Origin: Gemmatimonadales bacterium
GTDB lineage: Bacteria; Gemmatimonadota; Gemmatimonadetes; Gemmatimonadales; GWC2-71-9
Direction of reading: 5' to 3'
NCBI GenBank assembly: GCA_041615815.1
Contig: JBFJCP010000038.1
Location: 1-37,051 of the forward strand
Length of the DNA: 37,051 nucleotides
The notes beneath the pieces are model-generated. The model was not told the origin of the DNA and did no database searches. It saw nothing but the letters and a program-made list of their open reading frames with translations. The position numbers and the translations under genes are program-made. Position 1 is the first letter of the stretch; every line of letters begins with the position of its first letter. Of the stretch, positions 11,526-33,658 are shown piece after piece.

Positions 11526-11602
11526 TCTCAAACCACGCGCCGAGCGACGAAGGCATAGATCGGCGGGGTCGGGCCGGCTCATGCCACTGGAGACCGACAC
11601 AA

Positions 11603-11675
<73 letters not shown>

Positions 11676-11860
11676 ATACGAGTAGGGCGAGAAACATAAC
11701 CATTCAACGCTCTGAAACCACCCCTGAACCCGCTCCGGTCCCGACGGGCGGGGCGGGACAGCCGGTCAGGGTCGCTCAGTTTTCATGTCACGCAGGATAG
11801 CACGAGCGGGAAGAGCGCCCCCGGTGTCGATTCGGGCTTTAGGCAAGTTGCGACCGAGCT

Positions 11861-18174: not shown

Positions 18175-18246
18175 TGCCCCCAAGGGGAATCGAACCCCTA
18201 TTCCCACCTTGAAAGAGTGGTGTCCTAGCCGTTAGACGATGGGGGC
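18175..18246 (-). tRNA. tRNA-Glu(TTC)
   Basis: GCCCCCA/TGGGGGC acceptor stem, TCGTCTAACGGCTAGGAC D arm, CCACT-ctTTCaa-GGTGG, GGTTCGATTCC; CCA not encoded. Confidence 0.95.
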
Positions 18247-18283
18247 GGGTGGCGGTGCAGCGGCGAAAGGTAACGGGGCAGCA

Positions 18284-18356
18284 TAGCGGTAACGGGATTC
18301 GAACCCGTGTTTCTGCCTTGAGAGGGCAGCGTCCTAGTCCCCTAGACGATACCGCC
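18284..18356 (-). tRNA. tRNA-Glu(CTC)
   Basis: GGCGGTA/TACCGCT acceptor stem, CTGCC-ctCTCaa-GGCAG, GGTTCGAATCC; CCA not encoded. Confidence 0.95.
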
Positions 18357-18380
18357 ACAGACCGGCAGCGCCGGGGTTCA

Positions 18381-18409
18381 AATATCACCCGCCGCGGACG
18401 TCCGGGCAA
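18381..18409 (-). promoter_or_regulatory. sigma70-type promoter of the tRNA-Glu pair
   Basis: TTGCCC-N17-GATATT on the minus strand, about 25 nt upstream of tRNA-Glu(CTC). Confidence 0.55.
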
Positions 18410-18441
18410 CCCGGAATAACGGGTGTGGTAGGCTGTGGGGG

Positions 18442-18999
18442 GTGCGGACTAACGAGTTGGACGCGCAGGCACGAGGAGCCGTGCTGGGCATGGACTACAT
18501 CGCTGCAGCCTCGACGTACGTCGCCACCATCCTCGAGCGGCTCCAGGCCAGGTGGCCCGAGATCCGCCAGGTGCTCGTCAGCGCGTATGGTCGCCACCCC
18601 GCCCTGGCGGACGACGACGCCAACTACGCGGAAGCGGCTCTCGCCGCCCTTGCCGTGGGACTCCAAGCCCTCGATCAGAGCGCGCCTCCCTCGTTGACCA
18701 GCCAACTGCGCCCGGCCGTCTACGACGCCGTCATCGACCGATTCGGCACCCCTGAGGCCGCCACGGCACTGGATCAATACTCCGAGCTTTGGGATCGTAC
18801 GCGCGATCCGAGCGGACTCGGTATGGGCTTCATTATGAGCGTTCTCGGCGAAGAGCCGAAGCGCGAGGGCGAGCACGCCATTCTGCGGTACAGGACCGAG
18901 AAGCTCGCTGGTGGGACACTGATCGACGTGGCGGTGGGTGTCTGGCCGGAGGTGCTGGGCGGCGAGCGGGGAGCAGGCAGCGGAGAGCGGGAACAGTGA
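18442..18999 (+). CDS. Hypothetical helical protein
   Basis: 185-aa ORF with GC3-rich codon use filling the gap between tRNAs and ppk; no recognised motif. Confidence 0.55.
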   Translation: MRTNELDAQARGAVLGMDYIAAASTYVATILERLQARWPEIRQVLVSAYGRHPALADDDANYAEAALAALAVGLQALDQSAPPSLTSQLRPAVYDAVIDRFGTPEAATALDQYSELWDRTRDPSGLGMGFIMSVLGEEPKREGEHAILRYRTEKLAGGTLIDVAVGVWPEVLGGERGAGSGEREQ

Positions 19000-19107
19000 G
19001 AGGGCAGAGGGAAGAGCGATTGCAGAATTCAGCACGCACAATGCGGCGGCGCCAGAACGCCGGCTCCTCCGACTCCCCGCTCACCGCGCCCTGCTCCCCG
19101 CTCGCCG
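18960..19107. repeat. Inverted arrays of degenerate heptamer repeats with an 18-bp perfect inverted repeat
   Basis: cggcgagcggggagcagg (18960-18977) is the reverse complement of cctgctccccgctcgccg (19090-19107). Confidence 0.7.
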
Positions 19108-22100
19108 TAAGAACTGCTCCTGTGCTCCGGCGGCATCCGCCAACGACGCCGAGCGTCGCTCGTAAGATCCATCCGGACTCAATTCCCACGCGGTGGGGTC
19201 GGCGAACTCCGTGGTGAGAATCTCGTCGAGCCGTTTGCGGGCAGCGGCATCCGCGACCGCGGTGACTACCTCAACGCGCCGCCGGAGGTTGCGCGGACGC
19301 CAATCGGCCGAGCCGATGTAGTACTCGTCGTCTCCGCCATTGCGGAAGTGGTAGATCCGCGCGTGTTCGAGAAAGCGTCCCAAGATCGAGACCACGCGGA
19401 TGCGTTCCGAGAGACTGGGGACGCCCGGACGAAGCGTACACATTCCCCGCACCACCAACTCGATCACCACCCCGGCCTGCGAGGCAGCATAGAGCGCTTC
19501 GATGATCTCCGCATCGGCGAGGCCGTTGACCTTCACGCGGATCCCGGCCTCCCGCCCGGCTCGCGCATGCTCGGCCTCCCGCTCGATGAGCGAGACAAAG
19601 CGCGGTAGCATATCGTTGGGGGCCACCAGCAAGTGCCGAAAGCCGGTCTGGGACGGGCGGGACGATCCCATCAACTGGTTGAACAGGTCGCCCACGTCCG
19701 CACCGAGCTTTGGATCGCCAGACAACAGGCCAAGATCCGAATACAGCCGCGCCGTACTGGCGTTGTAGTTACCGGTTCCTACGTGCACGTACCGTCGAGC
19801 CGCATCCTGCTCACGCCGGACGATCATGGCGAGCTTGGAGTGGGTCTTGAGGTTGACGAGTCCGTAGATCACGTGCACGCCTGCCCGCTCGAGCTTTCTC
19901 ACCCACTCGATGTTGCGCTCTTCGTCGAAGCGAGCTTTCAACTCGACCAGGACATCGACTTCTTTCCCAGCCTCCACCGCCGCAATCAGGGCGTCGACCA
20001 CTGGTGAGCGCTGCCCCGCCCGGTACAGGGTTGCCTTTACAGCGACCACGTCGGGATCGGACGCCGCTTCGGTGAAAAGGCGTTGCGTAGTACTCTCGAA
20101 CGCGTCGTACGGATGGTGGACGAGGATGTCGCGCTCCCGCAAAACCGCGAAGATGGACTTGTCGGCGGGAATGGGGTTCGCCGCGTCGAGCGACGGATAG
20201 TCGAGCGCCGGCTGTTCCACGTTGGCGATCTGCGTGAGCGCGCTGAGGTCGAGCAGCCCGTCGACCTCGTAGATGCCGGAAGCTCCCGGCGTGGTCCCAC
20301 GGACCCCACCCACCATTTGGAGCTCTCGCATCAGGAGGTCCCGCATCACCGGCGGCATGGCGCGTTCGACCTCGAGACGAACGACACCGGCGAAGGGGCG
20401 CTTTCGTACCTGCTCCTCCACCGCGTCGAGGAGATCTTCCGCTGCCTCTTCGTCCAACTCCAAGTCACCGATCCTCGTCACACGAAAAGGGTGTACAGCC
20501 TCGACGCGCCGCCCGGGATAGAGCTTGTCGAGATTCGCCCGCACGATTTCTTCCAACGGCACGAACCGGTCACCTTCAGGCAGCCTCACGAACCGCGGGA
20601 GCGACGCCGGGAGGGTCGTGACACCAAACCGCAACCGGCCCGTCCCTTCGTCCCGTACCATGGCTGCCAACGAAAGATGGAGATTTTCGATGTGTGGGAA
20701 CGGGTGTCCGGGCGCTCGGGTGACCGCGTGAGGCGTGAGCAACGGAAACACCTGATCGTCATAGTATCGGCGGAGGTATCGCGCTTCATCCGGCGACAAC
20801 TCCTCCCAGCTATGGATCCGAACGCCCTCCGCGGCCAACGCCGGCAGTAGCTCGTGCTCGAGACACCGCCGCTGCCGGTTGAGCTGCTGACGGAGGCGAA
20901 CCGAGATGGCATCCAACCGCTCGTGGGCCGTCAGGCCGTCGTCACCCCGATCGTTCTTGCCGCCTGCCAGTGCTCGCTTGAGTGCCCCCACGCGAACCAT
21001 GAAATACTCGTCCGTGTTGCTCGTATAGATCGCCAGAAACCGAAGCCGTGCGAGGAGTGGGACTCCGGGATCCTCGGCGAGCGCGAGCACCCGTCCGTTG
21101 AATTCCAGAAGACTCAGATCGTCGGTGAGGAACCGCTGCGCGGTTGGCAACGCTCCCGGCCCGGCAGACGGCGGCAGGCGGCGAAATTCCTCTCTGGACA
21201 AGGCGGGAGGTGCCTCGGCCCCATCTCGTGCGAGGCAAAAACCCTCGAACGCCGCCTGCCGGGCAAAGAGCGCGAGCGCCGCCAGTGTGCGACCATCGCG
21301 CAACGCGGGAGCACCGGCCAGGTCCAGGACGTCCCGCGAATGGACCCAGCTGAAGTCCCCACTCATTCCCACCTCCCCACCGTTCGCCGGAAACGTCGCC
21401 AACCACACCTCCATCGCCGCGGCGCTTGGAGAGGCGGCCACGGTTCCCATGAGCTCCAGCTCGGCCCCGGCCAACCCGAGCGCGGTGGTGAGGATGCGGC
21501 GCGACGCCTCCTCGCCTTTGCCTTCCTGAATGGGCAGACGCAACGCCCGGCCGTCGTAGCGCATGGCCACTCGGTCGTTGGCCACCGCGATAACGGCGAC
21601 CTCGGGGATCGAGGTCACGGTGGTTTGGGGCGTTTCCGACTCCATGGCGCTGAGGAGCTCTTCGGCCCGCTCCACCCGTCGCGACGGCATCGGACGCAAG
21701 CCGTATTCCTGGGCGAATGCGCCACCCAGTTCTTCGATGGGCGGACCCCCAGGCGCGAGGCGCCGAATGCGTACCTCGTGAAACGTGCGAGAGAGACCAC
21801 CGCTGTGTACGGCGATCGTGTCGTACGCGATCTCGAACGCCTTGATGGGGAGCCAGCGGGGGCGGACCGTTCGTGCGATGCGCTCGATCTTCAGCTCGAT
21901 GCGAATCCCTAATTGACCGGGATCCACCACCGCTCTGAGGCGCCTGGCAGGCTCGGAGGCACCGTGCAGCGACGCCAGGGGGTCCACCTCGGGGACCTCG
22001 GACTCAAAATGGTCGTACTCCACCAAGGCACCACCAGCCACTGCAGTACGTATCACCACACGCAACGTCCGACGATCATCCATGCCGATGCGAAATCGGC

Positions 22101-22284
22101 AGCTCACACCGCGGCGTTGAAGCTCGCCATCCGGGGTGTCGAGATAGATGTCGCGATGGAAACTGCGATGGGGGCGACCGGCGCGCAGACCGAGTGGCAG
22201 AGGCGCGGCCGTCAGGGACTGGAGGACGTCCGCGCTCGGCACCTCAAAGCGTAACGCATTCTCCGATACAGTTTGGGTGGTCAT
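19081..22284 (-). CDS. ppk1: Polyphosphate kinase 1 with N-terminal CYTH-like and NUDIX-like domains (copy A)
   Basis: LEFNGRVL, SNTDEYFMVRV, HPFP, VHHPY, TLYR, ELKARFDE, KTHSK, GTGNYN, RFLEHARIY, SADWRPRN; N-terminal DIYLDTPDGELQRRGVSCRFR. Confidence 0.95.
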   Translation of the reverse strand: MTTQTVSENALRFEVPSADVLQSLTAAPLPLGLRAGRPHRSFHRDIYLDTPDGELQRRGVSCRFRIGMDDRRTLRVVIRTAVAGGALVEYDHFESEVPEVDPLASLHGASEPARRLRAVVDPGQLGIRIELKIERIARTVRPRWLPIKAFEIAYDTIAVHSGGLSRTFHEVRIRRLAPGGPPIEELGGAFAQEYGLRPMPSRRVERAEELLSAMESETPQTTVTSIPEVAVIAVANDRVAMRYDGRALRLPIQEGKGEEASRRILTTALGLAGAELELMGTVAASPSAAAMEVWLATFPANGGEVGMSGDFSWVHSRDVLDLAGAPALRDGRTLAALALFARQAAFEGFCLARDGAEAPPALSREEFRRLPPSAGPGALPTAQRFLTDDLSLLEFNGRVLALAEDPGVPLLARLRFLAIYTSNTDEYFMVRVGALKRALAGGKNDRGDDGLTAHERLDAISVRLRQQLNRQRRCLEHELLPALAAEGVRIHSWEELSPDEARYLRRYYDDQVFPLLTPHAVTRAPGHPFPHIENLHLSLAAMVRDEGTGRLRFGVTTLPASLPRFVRLPEGDRFVPLEEIVRANLDKLYPGRRVEAVHPFRVTRIGDLELDEEAAEDLLDAVEEQVRKRPFAGVVRLEVERAMPPVMRDLLMRELQMVGGVRGTTPGASGIYEVDGLLDLSALTQIANVEQPALDYPSLDAANPIPADKSIFAVLRERDILVHHPYDAFESTTQRLFTEAASDPDVVAVKATLYRAGQRSPVVDALIAAVEAGKEVDVLVELKARFDEERNIEWVRKLERAGVHVIYGLVNLKTHSKLAMIVRREQDAARRYVHVGTGNYNASTARLYSDLGLLSGDPKLGADVGDLFNQLMGSSRPSQTGFRHLLVAPNDMLPRFVSLIEREAEHARAGREAGIRVKVNGLADAEIIEALYAASQAGVVIELVVRGMCTLRPGVPSLSERIRVVSILGRFLEHARIYHFRNGGDDEYYIGSADWRPRNLRRRVEVVTAVADAAARKRLDEILTTEFADPTAWELSPDGSYERRSASLADAAGAQEQFLRRAGSRAR

Positions 22285-22291
22285 GTCTACA

Positions 22292-22297
22292 ATTGTA
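22292..22297 (-). promoter_or_regulatory. -10 hexamer TACAAT directly upstream of ppk1-A start (leaderless candidate)
   Basis: Minus strand gtg-TACAAT-tgtagac-ATG; no SD. Confidence 0.45.
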
Positions 22298-22356
22298 CAC
22301 CGATCCCACGGCGGACGCGCCAGGTGTTGCCGAAAGACGTACGCGCAGCGCGGGTG

Positions 22357-25227
22357 CTAGGGTGCGCCGCCGGTCAGCGAATCCCGCAGGGACTTCCTGG
22401 CGCCATTGGCGAAGCGGACGATTTCGATGAGCAGCGCGCGTACGCTGTCGGCTTCGGTCCCCGCTCCCAGCTGGCGAAGCGCATGCTCGCGAAGCGGCAG
22501 TACCTCCGTCCACGCAATCTGGTCCTGGAAGCCCGCCATCTGCATGAAAGGATCCGTCGCCGCAACGAGTTCCCGCGGCGCACTTCCTACCGCAGACACG
22601 CGGGCGACCTCCAATCGCAGCGGCCAGAGGGAGGCCGTCAACCCAAAGACGAAACGGCCAACGCTGTAGCGCCGCTGCGCGTCTTTCCACAGCCGCACTG
22701 CCGTCGCCGTATCGCCGCGGGCCAGCGCCTCTCCCGCCCGCAAGTCACCGGAGAGACTCTGGAACAACGGGTCGGCCGTGGGCCGGGTGGCCAACGCCTC
22801 GAGACGGGATCGGGCAGTGGCATACCGAGCGGGGGACCGCCTTCCATACCAACGGGCTGCCAACCACAACGCCTCGCCGTCTTCCGTACGATCGAGGAGC
22901 CGACGGGCAGCCTCGGCTTGACGACCCTCGTCACCCAATTGGGCCACCGCGGTAACGGCGGTTAGGAGAATCCAACGATCCAGCTCGGCTTGAGAAACGT
23001 CCAACCGCTCGGCGTCGCGGAATAGCGAGTCCGCTGTCGCGTCCCGTCCCCCTCCCAGCTCGACCGCCAGCATCATCCGAAACGCCGCCTCCCGGTCGGC
23101 ACGAGTGGCTGCGCGCTTCCACAGGGCTCGGACGGCCTGCGTGGACACGAGCCGGCTCGACGCTGCCTGTTGGAGCTCTCCAGCGCCGAGCCCAATCGTC
23201 TCCAGCGCGATGGCGGGCCGCGTGGGAAACGATTCCCGTACTCGCAGGGCGGGCCCGGAGCCCTGGAACACGAGGGAATCGACCATGTGCACGAGCTCGG
23301 CCCACACCGAGGTGTTGTCCACCGCAAGATAGGCCTCGACGAATCGCTGGGCATCGTCGTTCCGGCCGTCCAGGAACGCGAGCTGAGCCAACAGCGCGAG
23401 GGCGGTAACGAACTGCGGATCGAGACCATGGACGCGGCGCCATGCTCGTTCCGCCGAGACCCTGGGTGTGCCGAGTACGGCGGCGAAATAGAACTGGACG
23501 TAGCCCAGCATGACCCAAGCGTCAATCACTTGTGGATTTTGGACCGCGACCGCTTCCAGCAACTCGATGGCGGCCGCGAGATCCCCATGGCCCGCGAGCA
23601 ATTCGTAGGCGTCGAGAAGAGCGGCGGAGGTAGGGTCGAGGCGGTCGCGATACAAGCGTGCGGCCTCCAGCGCCGACCGCAGGTTGTGGACGCGGCTGGG
23701 CTGGGTCCGGCTCAGCTCCGAGAGCATGCGCTTGAGGTATGCGGGGGCAAAGGTGGAGTCGAGCCGGATCACGTCGTCGAAGCGCTCCGTGGCGCGATCG
23801 AAGGCGCCCCGGCGATAGAGCTCTTCAGCCTCGTAGTACGCATTGAACGCATCCAGTCCCCGGGGGAGGGCTTGGCGCCAACCGGTCAGTCGTCGCGCAG
23901 CGCGGCCAGCGAACACATCGAGCACCACGGCCGACACCAGGGACGAGAGGCTGTCGACGGGTCCCGTCACGCGGCCACTCTCGAGCACCCGGCGGCTCGC
24001 CGCATCGCGTAGTTGGACCTCGATGGTGAGATCTCCGCCGGGCGTCACTGCCGCATTTCCCCACACGGTTTCGCTCACCGCAAAGCGCCCGATCACGAAA
24101 TCCTGCAGGCTGTCGAGATCCCCCGTGGTCCCGAACCGCGCGGTCACCGCATCGCCCACCCGGTCCGCACTCACCACGCGGTAGTCCGGCACCCACTGCA
24201 ATTGCGCTTCGAACGCACGAGGGAGCGCCGCGCGTAAGTCGATGGTCTCGAGCCCCGTCGTCACCATGAACGGCAAGATGGCGACTGACGGTGTGACCGC
24301 TGTTCCCGGTCCGCGTGGCTGCCAGAGCCACCAGCCGGTGAGCCCCACGAGCACGAGCGCCGCTGCGCCCACGGCTGCCGTCAGCCAGCTGCCAATTCGT
24401 CTCCCCCGCTGGGCACTGCTGATCGTGTCCAGCCACGCCTTGGCCGATGGCGGGCGCTGGTCTCGGTCCAGGGCCAACGGCGCGGTCAGCGCGCGGACCG
24501 CCGGGATGCTCAGTTCGGGGCGCGCTTTGCGTAAGCGGCGCTCCGCCGTGGTCCGGTCGCTCATCACGTTTGGCAGTGTGCCGACGAGCGCCTCGTGCGC
24601 CGCGGCGGCGAGTGCATATAGGTCCACGCGGCCGTCGATGTCCCGGGCACCGGCTGCCTGTTCCGGAGCCATGTACGCGGGGGTGCCAATCACGGCGCCG
24701 GCTTCGGTGAGCGTTCGCTCGCCCGACGTCCGCTCCCGTGCCACACCAAAGTCGGTCACCATCCACCGACCCGTGGCTTCCTCTCGCAGGATGTTGGAAG
24801 GCTTGATGTCGCGGTGAATCACACCCCGGTCATGAGCGAACTGCAGCGCAGCACCCACCTGCGTCACCATCTCCCGCACCACGTCGTACTCGAGCGGGCC
24901 CTGCGCGGCCACGTATTGTGCCAGCGTCTTGCCCTCGACAAACGGCATGACCAGGTACGCGAGATCGTTGGTGGTGGCGAATTCGAAAACCGAGACGATG
25001 TGCGGATGAGAAAGGTTGGCCGCCAGCGCGGCTTCACGCTTGAAGCGCGCCAAGCGCTGGGGGCCCAGGGTCAGATCGCGATGCAGCACCTTGATAGCGA
25101 CCCGCGAGCCCAGCTCCCGATGGCGACCGAGGTACACCGCGCCCATCCCTCCCTGGGCGTGGAGGCCTTCCACCTCATAGTGCTCGCCGGTGGCGGCCCG
25201 TACATCCTCGATGGACGGTTGGTTCAT
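22357..25227 (-). CDS. Hanks-type Ser/Thr protein kinase with TM helix and TolB-N/TPR-like C-terminal region
   Basis: GGMGAVY, VAIK, HRDIKPSN, DFG, GTPAYMAPE; TM near aa 280-300; VAILPF; helical repeats. Confidence 0.92.
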   Translation of the reverse strand: MNQPSIEDVRAATGEHYEVEGLHAQGGMGAVYLGRHRELGSRVAIKVLHRDLTLGPQRLARFKREAALAANLSHPHIVSVFEFATTNDLAYLVMPFVEGKTLAQYVAAQGPLEYDVVREMVTQVGAALQFAHDRGVIHRDIKPSNILREEATGRWMVTDFGVARERTSGERTLTEAGAVIGTPAYMAPEQAAGARDIDGRVDLYALAAAAHEALVGTLPNVMSDRTTAERRLRKARPELSIPAVRALTAPLALDRDQRPPSAKAWLDTISSAQRGRRIGSWLTAAVGAAALVLVGLTGWWLWQPRGPGTAVTPSVAILPFMVTTGLETIDLRAALPRAFEAQLQWVPDYRVVSADRVGDAVTARFGTTGDLDSLQDFVIGRFAVSETVWGNAAVTPGGDLTIEVQLRDAASRRVLESGRVTGPVDSLSSLVSAVVLDVFAGRAARRLTGWRQALPRGLDAFNAYYEAEELYRRGAFDRATERFDDVIRLDSTFAPAYLKRMLSELSRTQPSRVHNLRSALEAARLYRDRLDPTSAALLDAYELLAGHGDLAAAIELLEAVAVQNPQVIDAWVMLGYVQFYFAAVLGTPRVSAERAWRRVHGLDPQFVTALALLAQLAFLDGRNDDAQRFVEAYLAVDNTSVWAELVHMVDSLVFQGSGPALRVRESFPTRPAIALETIGLGAGELQQAASSRLVSTQAVRALWKRAATRADREAAFRMMLAVELGGGRDATADSLFRDAERLDVSQAELDRWILLTAVTAVAQLGDEGRQAEAARRLLDRTEDGEALWLAARWYGRRSPARYATARSRLEALATRPTADPLFQSLSGDLRAGEALARGDTATAVRLWKDAQRRYSVGRFVFGLTASLWPLRLEVARVSAVGSAPRELVAATDPFMQMAGFQDQIAWTEVLPLREHALRQLGAGTEADSVRALLIEIVRFANGARKSLRDSLTGGAP

Positions 25228-25509
25228 AGCGGATCAACGGTCACAAAGGCAGAGGGCAGCAGTCAGGTCGATAACGACGATACTGACGAATGTAGACGGC
25301 AGGCCTCGAGCAGCCAGTGTTTCGACACCTCGGTATCCGTGTGCCGGCCACGGTCGACCCTCAACCCTCGGATCTCTCGGCGGATCGGCAGGGCCCACAT
25401 CAACCCCATGGACTGCCCTCTGCCCCCGCCCCCCGAACCACCCGCTGGCGCCACTCGACACGGAGCCCTAGAATGGAAAGACCTGCCAGCCCCGGGAGGT
25501 CGATCACCC

Positions 25510-25944
25510 ATGGCAACCGTCAAGGACATCCTGGCTCACAAAGGTGGCGACGTCGTCACCATGGTCGCCGCCGAGTCGGTCCTCAACGCCGCGCGTCTCA
25601 TGAACGAGCGGGGCATCGGCGGCATCGTAGTCATCGACGAGGGACAGATGGTGGGCATTTTCACCGAGCGCGACATCCTGCGTCGCGTCGTGGCCGAGCA
25701 GCGCGATCCCGCACAGACCGTGGTTCGCGACGTGATGACCGCCCCGGTGGTCACCTGTCGACCCGCCGCGACCCTCGAGCAGTGTGTCGCGATGATGACC
25801 GAGAAGCGCATTCGGCATCTGCCCGTCGCTGGTGATACAGGCCCGGAAGGCATCATCACGAGCGGGGACATCCTCGCGTATCAGGTACGAGAGCAGAAGG
25901 ACACGATCGAATACTTGAACAGCTACGTGTTTGACTTGCGGTGA
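25510..25944 (+). CDS. CBS domain protein (stand-alone CBS pair)
   Basis: GGAGGT RBS; MATVKDILAHKG, GIFTERD, VRDVMT, RIRHLPV, GIITSGD. Confidence 0.92.
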   Translation: MATVKDILAHKGGDVVTMVAAESVLNAARLMNERGIGGIVVIDEGQMVGIFTERDILRRVVAEQRDPAQTVVRDVMTAPVVTCRPAATLEQCVAMMTEKRIRHLPVAGDTGPEGIITSGDILAYQVREQKDTIEYLNSYVFDLR

Positions 25945-26579
25945 GCAGGTTCAGGGGGTGGTGGTTCTTCACCGCTCCCTGCTGCCCGCTTCCCACCGAG
26001 CTTCTCGACTTCCTCGTATCGAGGACATCCCAGTAGGTGGTCGTTGACGAGGCCCGCGGCCTGCATGAAGGCGTAGCAGATCGTTGACCCAACAAACCGA
26101 AACCCCCGTTGCTTGAGAACCTTGCTCATCGCGTCGGATTCCGACGTCGTCGCGGGCACCTGCGCGAGGGAGCGCCAGCGGTTTTGACGCGGGACCCCAT
26201 CTACGAACCCCCAGATGAACGTGTCGAAGGACCCGACCGCGGCCCGGACCTCGAGTAACGCCTGCGCATTTGTGACGGCGGCGTGGATCTTCTGCCGGTT
26301 GCGGACAATTCGGGCGTCCTCCGCCAGCCGTTCCAGCCGGCGGGGGGTGAACCGCGCCACTTTTGTGGGATCGAACCCCTGAAAGACCTCCTGAAACGCC
26401 TCGCGTTTACCCAGGATCACCGCCCAGCTCAGACCGGCCTGGAAACCATCGAGCACGAGGTACTCGAAGAGGAGCCGGTCATCGTGCACTGGCACCCCCC
26501 ATTCTCCATCGTGATACGCCCGCATGAGTGGGTTGACCTCCGCCCAGGGGCAGCGGCGAAGAGCGCGATCGCGTGGCAT
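25923..26579 (-). CDS. tag: DNA-3-methyladenine glycosylase I
   Basis: RCPWA, YHDGEWG, LDGFQAGLSW, IVRNRQKI, FVGSTICYAFMQAAGLVNDH...C. Confidence 0.93.
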   Translation of the reverse strand: MPRDRALRRCPWAEVNPLMRAYHDGEWGVPVHDDRLLFEYLVLDGFQAGLSWAVILGKREAFQEVFQGFDPTKVARFTPRRLERLAEDARIVRNRQKIHAAVTNAQALLEVRAAVGSFDTFIWGFVDGVPRQNRWRSLAQVPATTSESDAMSKVLKQRGFRFVGSTICYAFMQAAGLVNDHLLGCPRYEEVEKLGGKRAAGSGEEPPPPEPAHRKSNT

Positions 26580-27283: not shown

Positions 27284-30064
27284 TTACTGCGTTGCGGTGG
27301 CGGCCGTCGTGACGGCGACCAATTCCGTGGTCGTGCTCCCACCGCCCACCGCTGCCCCGAGCTTGGTCGTGCTCCGAACAAGATCGTGGGGCGCTTCCCG
27401 CGACACATAGAGCGTGGCCGTTCCCGCGTCGTCGTCGTCCAGGGGAATGAGCTCGACGACCAGCGTCTCGTAGGTCCCGGCTGCGGCTTCGGTGTCTTCC
27501 ATGCCCACCACGCGGAGCCACATCGGGCGGACGCGCTGCGTCTCGAGGTCGAAGACCCGCAGCGTGGTTTCGTATCCTACCGCCAAGGGCAGCGCCGCCA
27601 TCACCAGGGTGAGCGCGGACTCGTTGCCGAACACCGGGACGTCGAGCGCCACGCGGACCGGGATTACCTGGCCGCGCACGCGAAGCTCCCCGGTCACCGC
27701 GGTATCGGAGAAAACCAGCGATACCCCCCCCGTGCCCTCCGCTCCGCGACGGAGCGGGGCCAACGAGGCGCGATCCAGATCAAACGTGTCCACCGCCACC
27801 CCGAGCGGCGAGTGGACCTCGTCCACGACGCGCCATATCTCGCGCTCGTCCAGCCTCGCCCGCACGACCGTTCGAGCCACATCGATGTCGATGGTCTGCC
27901 CCATCGCTTCGATGGTGGTCCGGTACTGCACAGCCCGTGGACGAATCAGCGCTCCGTCAGCGGTGGGCAGGGGCGCCGTGGCCGCAATCTCCGCGGCGGC
28001 GGCTCGCTCGGTGATGTTCACCTTGGCGACATCCACGGTGAGCCGCGCGAGACGCTCGGCAAGTAGCGGCGACAGCTCTTCCTGACGTCGCCCGCCCACA
28101 TGCTCTGCGAGAAACCGCTCCATGGCGGTGGCAAAGGCAAGTCGATTCTCCGGTCCCTGGAATCCATGCCCCTCGTCCGGCACGAGAAGGTACTCGACGT
28201 CGCGTTCCAGATCCCGCAACGCGACGACGATCTGCTCGGATTCCCGTCGATTGACGCGCGGATCATTGGCGCCCTGGGCCACCAGGAGCGGGGCTCGGAT
28301 CCGCGACGCCAAGAAAAGCGGCGACTGCGACTCGAGGCGCTTGCGGTCATTGGGATCGTTGGGATCCCCCACCCGGACATGGAAGATGTTCCGAATGGGT
28401 CCCCAGTAGGGGGGGATCGATCGCAGGAGCGTCACGAGGTTGGACGGTCCAACCAGTGAGATACCTGCGGCATACAGGTCCGGTGTGAACGCCAATCCGG
28501 CCAGGGCCGCGTACCCTCCGTAGGAACCGCCAAAGATCGCCACCCGCGCTGGATCGGCAGTACCACGCTCGACGAGATACCGAACACCATCGGTGAGATC
28601 GTGCTGCATCGCGCCAGTGCCCCATTCCCGATTGCCGGCATTGAGAAACGCTTTGCCGTACCCAGTGGAGCCCCGAAAATTGGGTTGTAGCACCGCGTAT
28701 CCGCGGTTGGCGAGGAACTGGGTAAACGGGTCGTATCCCCAGACGTCGCGGGCCCAGGGACCTCCGTGGGCATAGATCACGAGCGCCAGATTCCTGGACT
28801 CGACACCGCGCGGTAGGGTGAGATACGCAGGGATTTCCATCCCGTCACGCGCCCGATAGCGGATGGCCCGAACCGGGGAGAGGTGTTCCGTCGGAAGACC
28901 GGGCCGGGCGCGATACAGCAGCTCGACCCGTCCCGTGGCGCGATCGTACAGGTAGACCGAGCCCGGATCCACGTCCCGGGTGACCCGCACGATCCGCAGC
29001 TGCCCATCGTCGGAGGACGACGCGAAATAGATCTCGCCTTCCGGGAGCCGTCTGCGGAGCAACTCGAGATCTTGCGCAAACTCCCGGTCCTTGGGGTAGA
29101 TGCGAAGCCGGTTGCCAAGGTAGTACGTGGCGACGAGCTCCTCGGTGACGTCGGAGAACTCGGCCCCTGCGAAATCGACTTGGCGCTCCGGATCCTCCTC
29201 CACGAACTCTTCGATCCCGGTCGCGGGATCGAAGAGGACCAGGCGCGTGAGGTCCACGTCTTCCCCGCGGTTAGTCACCATGTACACCCGACGCCCATCC
29301 GTGTGGTAGCGAATGGGCGCGCACGTCTCCTCGTGATTGCACTGGTAGACCGGGATGAGGGAGTCCCCCTGCACCCGGAGAATCTCGGTCCCACCCTCGG
29401 GGCCCACCCGGAGCCCGAGCCGCAGCCGGCCCTCGAGATCCGTCTGCCACCCCGCCACGTTCTGTTCGTTGCGGAACAACAGCTCACGGGCCCCGCTCCG
29501 GAGCGCGATGCGGTAGACGTCGTGGACCTGAGGATCCCGATCGTTGAGTCCCACAACGATGGTCCCTGGCGTCGGCTCGGGAATCGCGAGAACACGCGCA
29601 CGCACACGCTCAAACGGCGTGAGGTCGCGGGCCGGTGGTACCCCCGTGGACGCATCGGCCTCGGCGGCCGGATCGAGCACGTACACGTGGAAGTTTTCGT
29701 TGCCACCCCGGTCCTGAAGGTAGACGACGAAACGGCTGTCCTGACTCCAAAACGCGGCCCGAACGGGGCGCGTGGTGTCGGCCGTGATAGGCCGAGCGGT
29801 GTCGAAGGCGGCTCGGGTCTCGGTGACCCAGAGGTTCATGACGCCACGGTACGGCTTGCGGAACAGAATCCAACGTCCATCGGGCGAGAGTTCGCCGCCG
29901 GCGTGCTCGGGATCGCCGAAGAACAGCTCGCGATCGAGCAGGGGCACAAGCCGGTCCACGTACGACAGGCGCTCGGCGCTCTGGCCTGGGAGCATCTGCG
30001 GGCTGAGCGTCATCGCCAGCACGACGCCCAGCAGGATCGGGTTGCTTGGGCCGTTGGACCTCAT
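27284..30064 (-). CDS. S9 family peptidase (beta-propeller + alpha/beta hydrolase) with extra C-terminal beta domain
   Basis: Signal peptide, HGGPW, GGSYGGY, QGANDPRV, DEGHGF (Ser-Asp-His); about 200-aa C-terminal extension. Confidence 0.92.
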   Translation of the reverse strand: MRSNGPSNPILLGVVLAMTLSPQMLPGQSAERLSYVDRLVPLLDRELFFGDPEHAGGELSPDGRWILFRKPYRGVMNLWVTETRAAFDTARPITADTTRPVRAAFWSQDSRFVVYLQDRGGNENFHVYVLDPAAEADASTGVPPARDLTPFERVRARVLAIPEPTPGTIVVGLNDRDPQVHDVYRIALRSGARELLFRNEQNVAGWQTDLEGRLRLGLRVGPEGGTEILRVQGDSLIPVYQCNHEETCAPIRYHTDGRRVYMVTNRGEDVDLTRLVLFDPATGIEEFVEEDPERQVDFAGAEFSDVTEELVATYYLGNRLRIYPKDREFAQDLELLRRRLPEGEIYFASSSDDGQLRIVRVTRDVDPGSVYLYDRATGRVELLYRARPGLPTEHLSPVRAIRYRARDGMEIPAYLTLPRGVESRNLALVIYAHGGPWARDVWGYDPFTQFLANRGYAVLQPNFRGSTGYGKAFLNAGNREWGTGAMQHDLTDGVRYLVERGTADPARVAIFGGSYGGYAALAGLAFTPDLYAAGISLVGPSNLVTLLRSIPPYWGPIRNIFHVRVGDPNDPNDRKRLESQSPLFLASRIRAPLLVAQGANDPRVNRRESEQIVVALRDLERDVEYLLVPDEGHGFQGPENRLAFATAMERFLAEHVGGRRQEELSPLLAERLARLTVDVAKVNITERAAAAEIAATAPLPTADGALIRPRAVQYRTTIEAMGQTIDIDVARTVVRARLDEREIWRVVDEVHSPLGVAVDTFDLDRASLAPLRRGAEGTGGVSLVFSDTAVTGELRVRGQVIPVRVALDVPVFGNESALTLVMAALPLAVGYETTLRVFDLETQRVRPMWLRVVGMEDTEAAAGTYETLVVELIPLDDDDAGTATLYVSREAPHDLVRSTTKLGAAVGGGSTTTELVAVTTAATATQ

Positions 30065-30188
30065 ACGAGCCTCCGTCCCCTCAACAAACGACGACCCCGC
30101 CGTGGCGGCCATTTCCTGTATTCGGCGCCGCGGCAGGGTCGGACTTCACCAACTACGCGAATTGTGTACCGCGTGACTCGTCGTGCCG

Positions 30189-32487: not shown

Positions 32488-32605
32488 CAGGGGTGCTAGC
32501 CCGATCGGCCCGAAACCCGTAAGTTTTGATGACGAGGCCGGTTGACTGCTCCATGTCGCGCTTTTCCGACCTTCCAATCTTTCCGCCATGCGGGGAGGTC
32601 GATCC

Positions 32606-33658
32606 ATGGTTCGCGCCGCTGGGCTCACCGCAGCGTTCGCCGTCTTCACCGCTGGGGACCTCGCCACGCAGGAACCCATGACCACGGCTGCGGTGGAGAC
32701 GGCAGCTGACCCACTCTTCACGTCCCATGCGATGCTGGAGATCACGCTGGAGATGGATCTCCGGACGGTGGTCAAGGACGTGGGGGACGAGAACCAGCAC
32801 CACCCCGCGACACTGACCGTTTGGGATACGGGCGGCGAGCACACGGTCGAGATCGAGGTCGAGACACGCGGCCATTTTCGGCGCAACAAGCGAAACTGCA
32901 ACTTCCCGCCTCTGCGGCTCGCGTTCCCCGATTCGGGAACCGAGGGGACGCCGTTCGCCGGACAGCGCGAACTCAAGCTCGTGGTGCACTGCCAGGACAA
33001 GAAAGACGAATATGAACAGTATGTTCTCGAGGAGTATCTGATCTACCGCGTGTTCAACGTGCTCACCGACCGGAGCTTCCGGGTGCGGCTGGCCCGCATC
33101 ACCTACCGCGACCGCGTGGGGAAGCGGGACCCACTCACCAAGTACGCGTTTCTGATCGAAGAACACGAAGCAATGGCGGCCCGCAACGGCTGTACCGTCC
33201 TCGAAGTCAATGCGCATCCGCTCGAGTTCTCTCCCGCAGAGACGGCGCGGATGGTGCTGTTCCAGTACATGATCGGCAACACCGATTTCTCTATCGCCTA
33301 CTTGCACAATGTCCGGCTGCTGATGTGCCCAAACTACGAATCCGTCGCCGTACCGTACGATTTTGACTGGTCTGGAGTGATCGGTACGCCATACGCGAAG
33401 CCGGATCGCAAGCTGCCCATCCGATCGGTGCGAGACCGCTTGTTCCGCGGGTTCTGTCGCGACGAGGCCGTGTACCAACAGGCGGCGCGGGAGTTGCTGG
33501 AACGTAAAGACGCGATTTACGATCTCTACCGCACCCAGGATGGTCTCGACCCCAAGCGCCTCGAACGGACGCTCGAATACTACGACGAGTTCTACGAGAT
33601 CCTGGACGATCCACGAAAGTTCCGCCGGGAGATTCTCGACCGCTGTCGCGAAACATGA
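32606..33658 (+). CDS. Secreted CotH-like (atypical kinase fold) hypothetical protein
   Basis: GGAGGT RBS, signal peptide; RGHFRR..CNFPPLRL, KLVVHC, EEYLIY, FLIE, IGNTDF...HN, VPYDFD. Confidence 0.65.
   Translation: MVRAAGLTAAFAVFTAGDLATQEPMTTAAVETAADPLFTSHAMLEITLEMDLRTVVKDVGDENQHHPATLTVWDTGGEHTVEIEVETRGHFRRNKRNCNFPPLRLAFPDSGTEGTPFAGQRELKLVVHCQDKKDEYEQYVLEEYLIYRVFNVLTDRSFRVRLARITYRDRVGKRDPLTKYAFLIEEHEAMAARNGCTVLEVNAHPLEFSPAETARMVLFQYMIGNTDFSIAYLHNVRLLMCPNYESVAVPYDFDWSGVIGTPYAKPDRKLPIRSVRDRLFRGFCRDEAVYQQAARELLERKDAIYDLYRTQDGLDPKRLERTLEYYDEFYEILDDPRKFRREILDRCRET

Follow-up and report, generated by a model that had tools for sequence, protein, structure and literature searches.

A Gemmatimonadota family of PPK1 proteins with degenerate TTM and Nudix domains, often encoded beside DUF4956

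The polyphosphate (polyP) kinase PPK1 is, as a rule, a bare enzyme of 690 residues. Its activity requires His435 and His592, according to the accessible part of bioRxiv 10.1101/630129. Among proteins with the TTM (CYTH) tunnel fold, YgiF requires E160 (site 1) and E4, E6 and E162 (site 2), and polyP translocation has been demonstrated for the eukaryotic VTC complex only, both as given in the available part of PMC4641920. A gene triad of S. intermedius, SIR_1592–1594, comprises a membrane, a VTC and a CotH gene in the accessible part of PMC12345266; by its described architecture, SIR_1592 may be a DUF4956/MgtC-like protein. The TTM–Nudix–PPK1 architecture is undescribed in the literature searched, in which no paper on it was found; the original prediction likewise knew of no characterised PPK1 of this kind.

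Two such proteins, P0001 and P0002, are encoded in the window (the whole stretch of DNA analysed, 37,051 nucleotides from a Gemmatimonadales bacterium), which carries the following features:

19081..22284, minus strand: TTM–Nudix–PPK1 gene P0001, 1067 residues (ORF from ATG, Pfam, TIGR03705)
21640..22260, minus strand: TTM/CYTH tunnel domain, residues 9–215 of P0001 (AlphaFold2 model, fold matches, alignment)
21250..21609, minus strand: Nudix-fold domain with a degenerate box, residues 226–345 of P0001 (fold match, alignment)
21133..21249, minus strand: poorly conserved linker, residues 346–384 of P0001 (conservation, dN)
19105..21132, minus strand: complete PPK1 (N, head, C1 and C2 domains), residues 385–1060 of P0001 (Pfam, TIGR03705, residues)
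22357..25227, minus strand: gene for a Ser/Thr kinase-TM-TPR protein; it ends 72 nt upstream of P0001
33723..36941, plus strand: second TTM–Nudix–PPK1 paralogue P0002, 1072 residues, 48% identical overall to P0001
32588..33658, plus strand: gene for a CotH-like, kinase-like protein that is probably exported; it ends 64 nt upstream of P0002

The original prediction had the ends of the P0001 ORF exactly but gave no strand, and the motifs it quoted are all present in the regions it named: DIYLDTPDGELQRRGVSCRFR (45–65), FESEV (93–97), IERIAR (133–138), EIAYDTIAV (151–159) and FHEV (168–171) in the TTM region, and VAVIAVANDRVAM (229–241), LRLP (248–251), GEEASRRILTTALG (257–270), EVWLA (292–296) and FSW (311–313) in the Nudix region. 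Chance read-through, a frameshift or an assembly artefact is ruled out because the same architecture is found within one ORF in 43 database proteins as well as in most of those genomes of the phylum that have a match (51 of 301). P0002 lies 11 kb from P0001 and is 37% identical to it in the N-terminal module; no PPK1 beyond these two was found in the genome. The Ser/Thr kinase-TM-TPR gene has a counterpart in matching position beside one orthologue (L135, 68% identical) and none beside another (L134, 72%). A promoter and terminator scan of positions 18300–26000 gave no promoter-like and one terminator-like site, fewer than in shuffles.

The C-terminal part of P0001 is a complete PPK1, as had been predicted for the portion following the first ~380 residues. 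Pfam places four PPK1 domains across residues 386–1050, with the N, head, C1 and C2 domains all above curated cut-offs, and TIGR03705 scores 749.8 bits against a cut-off of 465.85. His815 and His974 correspond to E. coli His435 and His592, and K433, H435, R375, R564, H592, R621 and E623 (E. coli numbers) are invariant in all 47 fused PPK1 domains. With these catalytic residues intact, the kinase is probably active.

The N-terminal domain has the eight-stranded CYTH/TTM tunnel fold. A single-sequence search of the PDB with residues 1–380 gives no significant match; the Pfam CYTH profile matches residues 13–157 (E 0.0011) with the whole protein as query and scores 23.2 bits, equal to the cut-off, on residues 1–220 alone. 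Across the family, PF01928 matches 41 of 47 members at E ≤ 0.1, and the N-terminal region matches YgiF in a profile comparison (E 9.3e-6). An AlphaFold2 model of residues 1–351 (pLDDT 91.2) bears out both folds proposed for this region, and its TTM part matches E. coli YgiF (5a60, Foldseek E 9.8e-10; 5a61, Z 15.2, rmsd 3.8, 195 residues aligned). The basic tunnel residues R12, R63, R65, R135 and R206 are kept, the first four at the positions of the YgiF substrate residues K8, R56, R58 and R126, and 119 of 155 homologues have a basic residue at each of the positions R63, R65, R135 and R206. The N-terminal ExExK of TTM triphosphatases (YgiF/AtTTM3/SaTTM type) is missing from P0001, which has E8-N-A10-L-R12, and ExEx[KR] occurs in none of the 155 homologues. 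The YgiF metal glutamates E6, E160 and E162 align with A10, R172 and R174, so that both strand-8 ExE ligands are replaced by arginines. Positions 172 and 174 are acidic in 16 and 4 of the 155 homologues, respectively, one or the other is basic in 112, and the complete TTM acidic patch or YgiF metal-ligand set is found in none; the strand-8 register here is that of a sequence alignment. With its metal ligands lost and its tunnel arginines kept, the TTM domain looks like a pseudoenzyme. Some of its invariant residues (R44, D49, R138) may be structural.

Two other identities do not fit the TTM domain. An adenylyl cyclase is rejected on its motifs: class IV enzymes (CyaB) combine HFxxxxExExK with loss of the first xRxR arginine (PMC8233210), a combination that P0001 does not show. 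The site-1 glutamate and catalytic lysine of VTC-domain polymerases (PF09359) were not found either; PF09359 has no match anywhere in the genome, and the TTM profile does not match a bacterial VTC protein (E 0.088).

The second domain (residues 226–350 of the model) has the Nudix fold and matches 2w4e with Z 14.7 (rmsd 2.4, 117 residues aligned). Pfam finds no match in residues 216–360, and the ESM Atlas relates the region (0.93) to a PF00293 cluster with 87 shared features. Set against the hydrolase box, GX5EX7REUXEEXGU, P0001 has a degenerate GxGEE-A-x-R-RILTT without REuxEE, and REuxEE is found in one of 126 homologues. Fold matches include the non-catalytic NrtR (3gz8, Z 13.2) and AraR (5bs6, Z 13.0), whose Nudix domains act as sensors. 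Judged by its box, this domain, too, looks like a pseudoenzyme. As a ligand sensor it is the less likely of the two domains, since no other folded portion of the protein evolves as fast and one nested lineage of the clade has lost it. The built-in binding modules of the original prediction agree with the loss of the metal ligands from both folds, whereas its granule targeting and a control by (p)ppGpp or Ap4A are speculative here; the prediction had missed this catalytic degeneracy, the paralogue and the DUF4956 link.

All named matches of the family belong to Gemmatimonadota (37 of 37), and the fused PPK1s form one clade in a quick tree (SH-aLRT 100). With three profiles built here, no other partner domains were seen among the best 150 representatives listed; many of these are fragments, and a stand-alone form may therefore exist. 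In 17 of 50 genomes, no PPK1 other than the fused form was found. Relative to the closest orthologue, dN is 0.11 for the TTM domain, 0.15 for the PPK C-domains, 0.35 for the Nudix domain and 0.67 for the linker, at a dS of about 1.4. The TTM domain is under purifying selection and as conserved as the kinase. In one member (L031), the kinase lacks C1 and C2, yet the TTM–Nudix module is retained.

The fused genes have characteristic neighbours. DUF4956, CotH-like or Omp85-like genes accompany 48 of 52 fused loci (DUF4956 in 37, CotH-like in 21, Omp85-like in 20) versus none of 30 canonical ppk1 loci, and 33 of the 37 named loci. The CotH-like and Omp85-like genes are alternative partners, present in 35 and 43 loci and together in none. 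All nine candidate loci examined (nine genomes) encode an in-frame fusion of the DUF4956 transmembrane part to PPK1, lacking TTM, Nudix and the C-terminal part of the DUF; the four placed on trees nest within the fused-PPK1 clade. This fusion, present in two genera, probably goes back to a single event, and it could be a tolerated deletion between neighbouring genes. A TTM-type gene also accompanies DUF4956 elsewhere: a VTC-domain gene does so in all 16 VTC-positive genomes, mostly in adjacent position. Genes of the DUF4956, CotH-like and Omp85-like kinds are missing beside P0001 and beside its orthologues L134, L135 and L137, and the sole DUF4956 gene of the P0001 genome lies on contig C4. 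A complex prediction for the TTM–Nudix module with this DUF4956 scored 0.00, which is no evidence either way. Canonical ppk1 is sometimes near DUF4956, too (L181, L183, L184, L200, L203–L205).

The CotH-like gene upstream of P0002 is a recurrent family neighbour, and its label is a lead only: the ESM Atlas places it (0.97) with a cluster in which PF08757 accounts for 17%, and PF08757 matches 2 of 33 members weakly (E 0.04–0.1). Comparison with the Omp85-like N-terminus by hhalign (E 0.35) aligns only putative catalytic-loop stretches. That both are kinases is a motif-level guess, because neither the CotH-like protein nor the Omp85-like N-terminus has a match in a PDB sequence search.

Ppx was found in 2 of the 16 genomes that have the fused form only, in 31 of the 33 that have another PPK1 as well and in 31 of 32 controls; in the genome of P0001, no match was found for Ppx, PPK2 or CHAD. 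Its absence may reflect co-loss of the linked ppk–ppx pair in fragmented assemblies. Ppx is also absent from one genome (G063) in which the sole PPK1 is fused to DUF4956 and has neither TTM nor Nudix.

The reading we prefer, at about even confidence, is an active, membrane-coupled PPK1 of a Gemmatimonadota clade with a non-catalytic, phosphate-binding TTM tunnel and a dead Nudix domain; kinase activity, ligand binding in the tunnel, DUF4956 docking and the fate of polyP are what we infer. The ATP-dependent PPK1 would make polyP on the cytoplasmic side, as a subunit of a membrane module that also contains a DUF4956 inner-membrane protein and an exported partner of the CotH-like or Omp85-linked kind. 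The arginine-lined tunnel of the TTM pseudoenzyme would hold a phosphate polymer or triphosphate without cleavage, guide or sense the nascent chain and help link the kinase to this module; the Nudix domain, without catalysis of its own, would act as a spacer or offer an accessory surface. Against membrane coupling, DUF4956 is without a match in 5 of 50 fused genomes, and 88 of 133 DUF4956 genomes lack the TTM–Nudix module; 16 of 20 loci examined from the latter have no PPK1 of the fused clade. A rather unlikely alternative is purely cytosolic: TTM and Nudix would serve an otherwise ordinary storage PPK1 as allosteric sensors or for granule targeting, and the membrane genes would be neighbours without physical coupling to it. 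This alternative agrees with the position of P0001 outside a DUF4956 operon in a genome whose PPK1s are all of the fused type, with the fused form as sole PPK1 elsewhere, with the sensors NrtR and AraR among the fold matches, and with a full-length pTM of 0.81, which suggests that the module may pack on the kinase; against it stand the neighbour linkage (48/52 vs 0/30), the direct DUF4956 fusions, in which TTM and Nudix are dispensable, and the loss of Ppx where the fused form stands alone. Doubtful, and bolder, is a VTC counterpart built from other parts, in which a TTM-docked PPK1 on DUF4956 would move nascent polyP across the inner membrane and an exported CotH-like or Omp85-tethered atypical kinase would use it as phosphoryl donor in a compartment without ATP. 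Such a system would account for the fusions of DUF4956 to PPK1, for the missing Ppx and for the fact that the two partners never share one locus.

The absence of Ppx (14 of 16 fused-only genomes, including that of P0001) could also speak for a bifunctional synthase-hydrolase, in which TTM and/or Nudix cleave polyP or tripolyphosphate in place of Ppx. Of 155 homologues, 133 retain R63, the catalytic arginine equivalent to YgiF R56, deep-branching members retain the site-1 glutamate (16/155), and eukaryotic PPK1–Nudix (DIPP) fusions are known (available part of PMC12526157); nevertheless, we regard this as improbable, with metal site 2 complete in none of 155 sequences under either strand-8 register, REuxEE all but missing and Ppx absent from G063. 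Still less probable is a Vtc4-like TTM that polymerises polyP or makes primers for PPK1 to extend. Vtc4 is likewise basic where the acidic patch is expected (accessible part of PMC4641920), as at R172 and R174, the fold search also returned Vtc4/Vtc2 (3g3q, Z 11.9), the domain takes the place of the VTC gene beside DUF4956, and a strand 8 shifted by two would make E170 (123/155) the site-1 glutamate. But E170 aligns with YgiF E158 in ungapped alignments, and site 1 is therefore R172; K69 and K191 (Vtc4 K458) are at variable positions, YgiF and other CYTH folds outscore Vtc4, and the bacterial VTC protein gave no profile match. That TTM and Nudix are functionless passengers of an old fusion is hardly credible: Nudix is gone from one nested lineage and both domains from another, and Nudix dN is 2–3 times that of the kinase, but TTM dN is as low as that of the catalytic domains, the tunnel arginines are near-invariant over 155 sequences, and L031 has kept the module.

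In this clade, a single chain brings together PPK1 and the TTM fold used by Vtc4, polyP machineries unrelated to each other, and DUF4956 thereby gains a concrete, testable partner. The TTM–Nudix domains are soluble and open to direct assay, and should be annotated neither as CYTH adenylyl cyclases nor as Nudix hydrolases.

Similar to E. coli Ppk (PDB id: 1XDO; TIGR03705), P0001 has all four domains, the catalytic histidines and the core residues, and its model superimposes on 1XDO with a TM-score of 0.86–0.91 by target length. Unlike bacterial PPK1, it carries 380 additional TTM–Nudix residues, and the fused form is a separate clade linked to DUF4956 instead of ppx. The TTM domain shares the tunnel fold, the DxY motif, the xRxR arginines and the positions of R126, D143, E158 and R194 with YgiF and CYTH triphosphatases (PF01928; 5A60/5A61), but its ExExK and both metal sites are degenerate, and it is joined to Nudix–PPK1 where YgiF has CHAD. 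The Nudix domain has the fold of DR2204 (2w4e), NudE-type 1vhg, NrtR, AraR and the MutY C-domain (Z 13–14.7), with a remnant GxGE..R box that lacks the REuxEE glutamates. PPK1 and Nudix also share one chain in C. merolae, where, by description only, the Nudix is of the eukaryotic DIPP type and no TTM is reported in the available part of PMC12526157. With the SIR_1592–1594 triad and the eukaryotic VTC complex, as far as their accessible descriptions go, the Gemmatimonadota loci have in common a membrane protein, a TTM-fold protein, a CotH-like gene and a polyP polymerase; in the Gemmatimonadota loci, however, the role of polymerase falls to PPK1, the TTM resembles YgiF and is degenerate, and DUF4956 is longer than in the triad, at about 350 residues.

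Two genes in the window encode polyphosphate kinases of the same build, P0001 and P0002, in which a TTM (CYTH, tunnel-fold) domain and a Nudix domain precede PPK1 (fused PPK1s; those lacking this N-terminal module are called canonical).

11602–11676, 18175–18246 and 18283–18357, minus strand: tRNA-Lys and two tRNA-Glu genes
18442–18999, plus strand: 185-residue ORF with no Pfam match, between the tRNA genes and the ppk stop codon, conserved in the 68% orthologue of P0001, L135
19081–22284, minus strand: TTM-Nudix-PPK1 gene, P0001 (ORF, 1067 residues)
27284–30112, minus strand: S9 peptidase with a C-terminal DUF3108 domain, 942 residues
33723–36941, plus strand: second TTM-Nudix-PPK1 gene, P0002 (1072 residues)

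All motifs quoted in the original prediction are present in P0001, and the complete PPK1 it described is borne out by four PPK1 Pfam domains (residues 386–1050) and a TIGR03705 score of 749.8 (cut-off 465.85). Further upstream, Pfam gives a borderline CYTH match (residues 13–157) and no match in residues 216–360. A profile built from an alignment of 47 module sequences matches E. coli YgiF (E 9.3e-6) and, at E 0.22, an ADP-ribose pyrophosphatase of the Nudix type from Thermus. The AlphaFold2 model of residues 1–351 (pLDDT 91.2) has YgiF as its top Foldseek match (E 9.8e-10), followed by other TTMs and Vtc4/Vtc2. In VIA-align, residues 1–215 superimpose on the TTM 2gfg (Z 15.7, rmsd 3.8, 177 aligned), 5a61 (Z 15.2, rmsd 3.8, 195 aligned) and Vtc4 (3g3q, Z 11.9), in agreement with the proposed CYTH/TTM fold. 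The Nudix fold, also proposed, is recovered for residues 226–350 (2w4e, Z 14.7, rmsd 2.4, 117 aligned) and in ESM Atlas (0.93). The full-length model (pLDDT 90.6, pTM 0.81) gives target TM-scores of 0.83–0.91 with solved PPK1s. P0001 is a PPK1 by membership, and its other two domains are TTM and Nudix by fold only. The two proteins are 48% identical overall and 37% identical across the module, and tblastn and PF13089 find no further PPK1 in the source genome (95.7% complete). P0002 is located behind a CotH-like gene (32588–33658, plus strand), whose CotH label is a lead, and falls in a CotH-linked subclade that does not include P0001.

The kinase retains its catalytic residues. E. coli K433, H435, R375, R564, H592, R621 and E623 are invariant in all 47 fused PPK1 domains; R53, R405 and H454 (E. 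coli numbering) vary among some fused members and are unchanged in P0001 and P0002. His435 and His592 (H815 and H974 in P0001) touch ATP and are required for activity, according to passages of bioRxiv 10.1101/630129. For the TTM, passages of PMC4641920 give E160 as the ligand of metal 1 in YgiF and E4, E6 and E162 as those of metal 2, report impairment by E6A, E160A and R56A, and describe Vtc4 as retaining site 1 but carrying basic residues where the acidic patch would be; TTM motifs are additionally given in part of PMC8233210. In ungapped alignments of strands 7–8, YgiF E158, E160 and E162 correspond to P0001 E170, R172 and R174, a register derived from sequence alignment, in which a shift by two would leave site 1 in place and not site 2. 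A deep-branching fused member falls into the same register and retains the E160 equivalent. Among 155 sequences (non-redundant at 90%) with a complete TTM, taken from database proteins, profile-search matches and loci L054–L103 of related genomes, none has ExEx[KR] or, whichever the strand-8 register, the full acidic set; an acidic residue stands at position 172 in 16 and at position 174 in four, and R63, R65, R135 and R206 are jointly basic in 119. REuxEE, a part of the Nudix box consensus, occurs in one of 126 sequences, and G255, G257, E258, R262, E292, W294 and W313 are retained in 108–126 of them. In comparison with the closest orthologue, the TTM has a dN of 0.11, PPK1 0.15–0.18, the Nudix domain 0.35 and the linker 0.67 (dS ~1.2–1.5); two further orthologues give the same order. 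Judged by its missing metal motifs and low dN, the TTM has lost its catalytic equipment yet is under constraint as tight as that on the kinase.

The architecture is real and conserved. All 43 database proteins matching P0001 residues 1–380 carry PPK1 domains (partial in two), within a length window (586–1868 residues) that is blind to stand-alone forms. A module profile search yields 190 representatives at E ≤ 1e-30; the matches named in GTDB, close relatives only, are all from Gemmatimonadota (37/37). A fused-module match is found in 51 of 301 Gemmatimonadota genomes, weakly in one, and the fused gene is the sole PPK1 found in 17 of the remaining 50. One unpublished genome, G181, is counted in these three figures and in the DUF4956 tallies of 45/50 and 133/301, and another, G157, in the PPK1 tally; no conclusion depends on either. 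In midpoint-rooted trees, fused PPK1 domains are monophyletic (48 of 79 rows, SH-aLRT 100), and the clade recurs (52 of 85 rows) when E. coli and one long branch are excluded. A TTM-PPK1 form without Nudix (three rows) nests within this clade, so the Nudix domain was lost secondarily; such genes (L033–L035, L166–L168, L170; ~930 residues) are preceded by DUF4956 and CotH-like genes where flanks existed. In another form (L031:3079–5235, minus strand; P0084; P0168), TTM-Nudix precedes a degenerate PPK1 that consists of N/head and stops short of the catalytic C1/C2; this may be a non-catalytic subunit. The fused gene is frameshifted in three genomes (L032, L037/L102, L169), through sequencing error or decay.

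The genomic case for a putative coupling of fused PPK1 to the membrane is strong. Among 52 fused loci with ~8 kb flanks (50 of 58 genome matches and both window genes), 37 have a DUF4956 gene, 21 a CotH-like gene and 20 an Omp85-like gene, with at least one of these in 48, counts that include related genomes and are not independent. A Ser/Thr kinase gene is nearby in 26. No DUF4956, CotH-like or Omp85-like gene occurs at 30 canonical ppk1 loci taken from the top of the PPK1 match list, 20 of them from genomes also bearing a fused gene; elsewhere, canonical ppk1 is at times near DUF4956. The linkage is seen in 33 of 37 named loci, and CotH-like and Omp85-like genes (35 and 43 loci) never share one. 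In all nine fetched loci with DUF4956 frames of 940–1245 residues (L181–L184, L201–L205), the membrane part of DUF4956 runs in frame into PPK1, the DUF C-terminal part, TTM and Nudix all being missing; a canonical ppk1 often lies next to the fusion. Four of these placed on trees fall within the fused clade beside P0002, and that of L204 has a CotH-like gene directly upstream. A tenth long DUF4956 frame, L206, was examined and is not such a fusion. A calcineurin-like metallophosphoesterase gene is near the fused gene in 14 loci (e.g. L079:614–1912) and an SdiA-regulated-like gene in 10 (e.g. L068:5054–6169).

We favor, at about even chances, a reading in which the fused PPK1 would be an active kinase, the pseudo-TTM would hold a phosphate polymer or triphosphate without cleavage and tie the kinase to the DUF4956 module, and the Nudix domain would be a catalytically dead accessory. 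A function limited to cytosolic regulation or granule targeting is a genuine if unlikely alternative. It would suit P0001 itself, which, like its 68% orthologue, has only a Ser/Thr kinase-TPR gene upstream, while the only DUF4956 gene of the source genome (L053:1165–2283; contig C4 39420–43213), behind which lies an Omp85-like gene containing a kinase-like motif stretch, has no ppk beside it. Speaking against membrane coupling, too, no DUF4956 match is found in 5 of 50 fused genomes, 88 of 133 DUF4956 genomes have no TTM-Nudix module, and 16 of 20 fetched module-less DUF4956 loci carry a CotH-like (11), Omp85-like (4) or kinase (1) gene and no PPK1 of the clade. Against the cytosolic alternative stands the linkage. 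The 53% orthologue, L136, is directly preceded by an Omp85-like gene, suggesting that the operon was split in the P0001 lineage. Loci in which DUF4956 accompanies a CotH-like or Omp85-like gene but has no polyphosphate kinase nearby (L185–L199) are common in the phylum.

Export of polyphosphate as phosphoryl donor for extracytoplasmic kinases, the boldest reading, is doubtful. A built-in hydrolase replacing Ppx would match the scarcity of Ppx above cut-off in fused-only genomes (2/16, compared with 31/33 with a second PPK1 and 31/32 controls, related genomes being included; the Ppx-less control has only a DUF4956::PPK1), and profile searches for Ppx, PPK2, CHAD and VTC in the source genome gave no match. 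It is nevertheless improbable given the missing metal and Nudix motifs, and Ppx absence may reflect co-loss of ppk and ppx. Primer synthesis by the TTM in the manner of Vtc4 would agree with the fold matches and is quite improbable. That TTM and Nudix are a vestige is scarcely credible: the fast-evolving Nudix domain would allow it, the tightly conserved TTM speaks against it.

The architecture, predicted to be uncharacterised, is apparently undescribed: in mostly open literature we found no account of PPK1 with TTM/CYTH and Nudix, none in work on Gemmatimonadota ppk, VTC with CotH, or PPK-Nudix-tunnel proteins, and no paper joining DUF4956 and polyphosphate; supplementary CYTH network tables of PMC8233210 might list it. 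The nearest published chimera is the C. merolae PPK1-Nudix fusion (cited in the review PMC12526157). Of the 301 genomes, 16 carry VTC-domain genes; each of these also has DUF4956, and in most cases the VTC-domain gene adjoins a short DUF4956. In passages of PMC2879425, C. perfringens VTC, membrane and CotH genes are clustered, and in those of PMC12345266 the S. intermedius pel locus has a triad of membrane, polyphosphate-polymerase and CotH genes, in which deletion of the polymerase has no reported effect and deletion of the membrane or CotH gene lowers aggregation.
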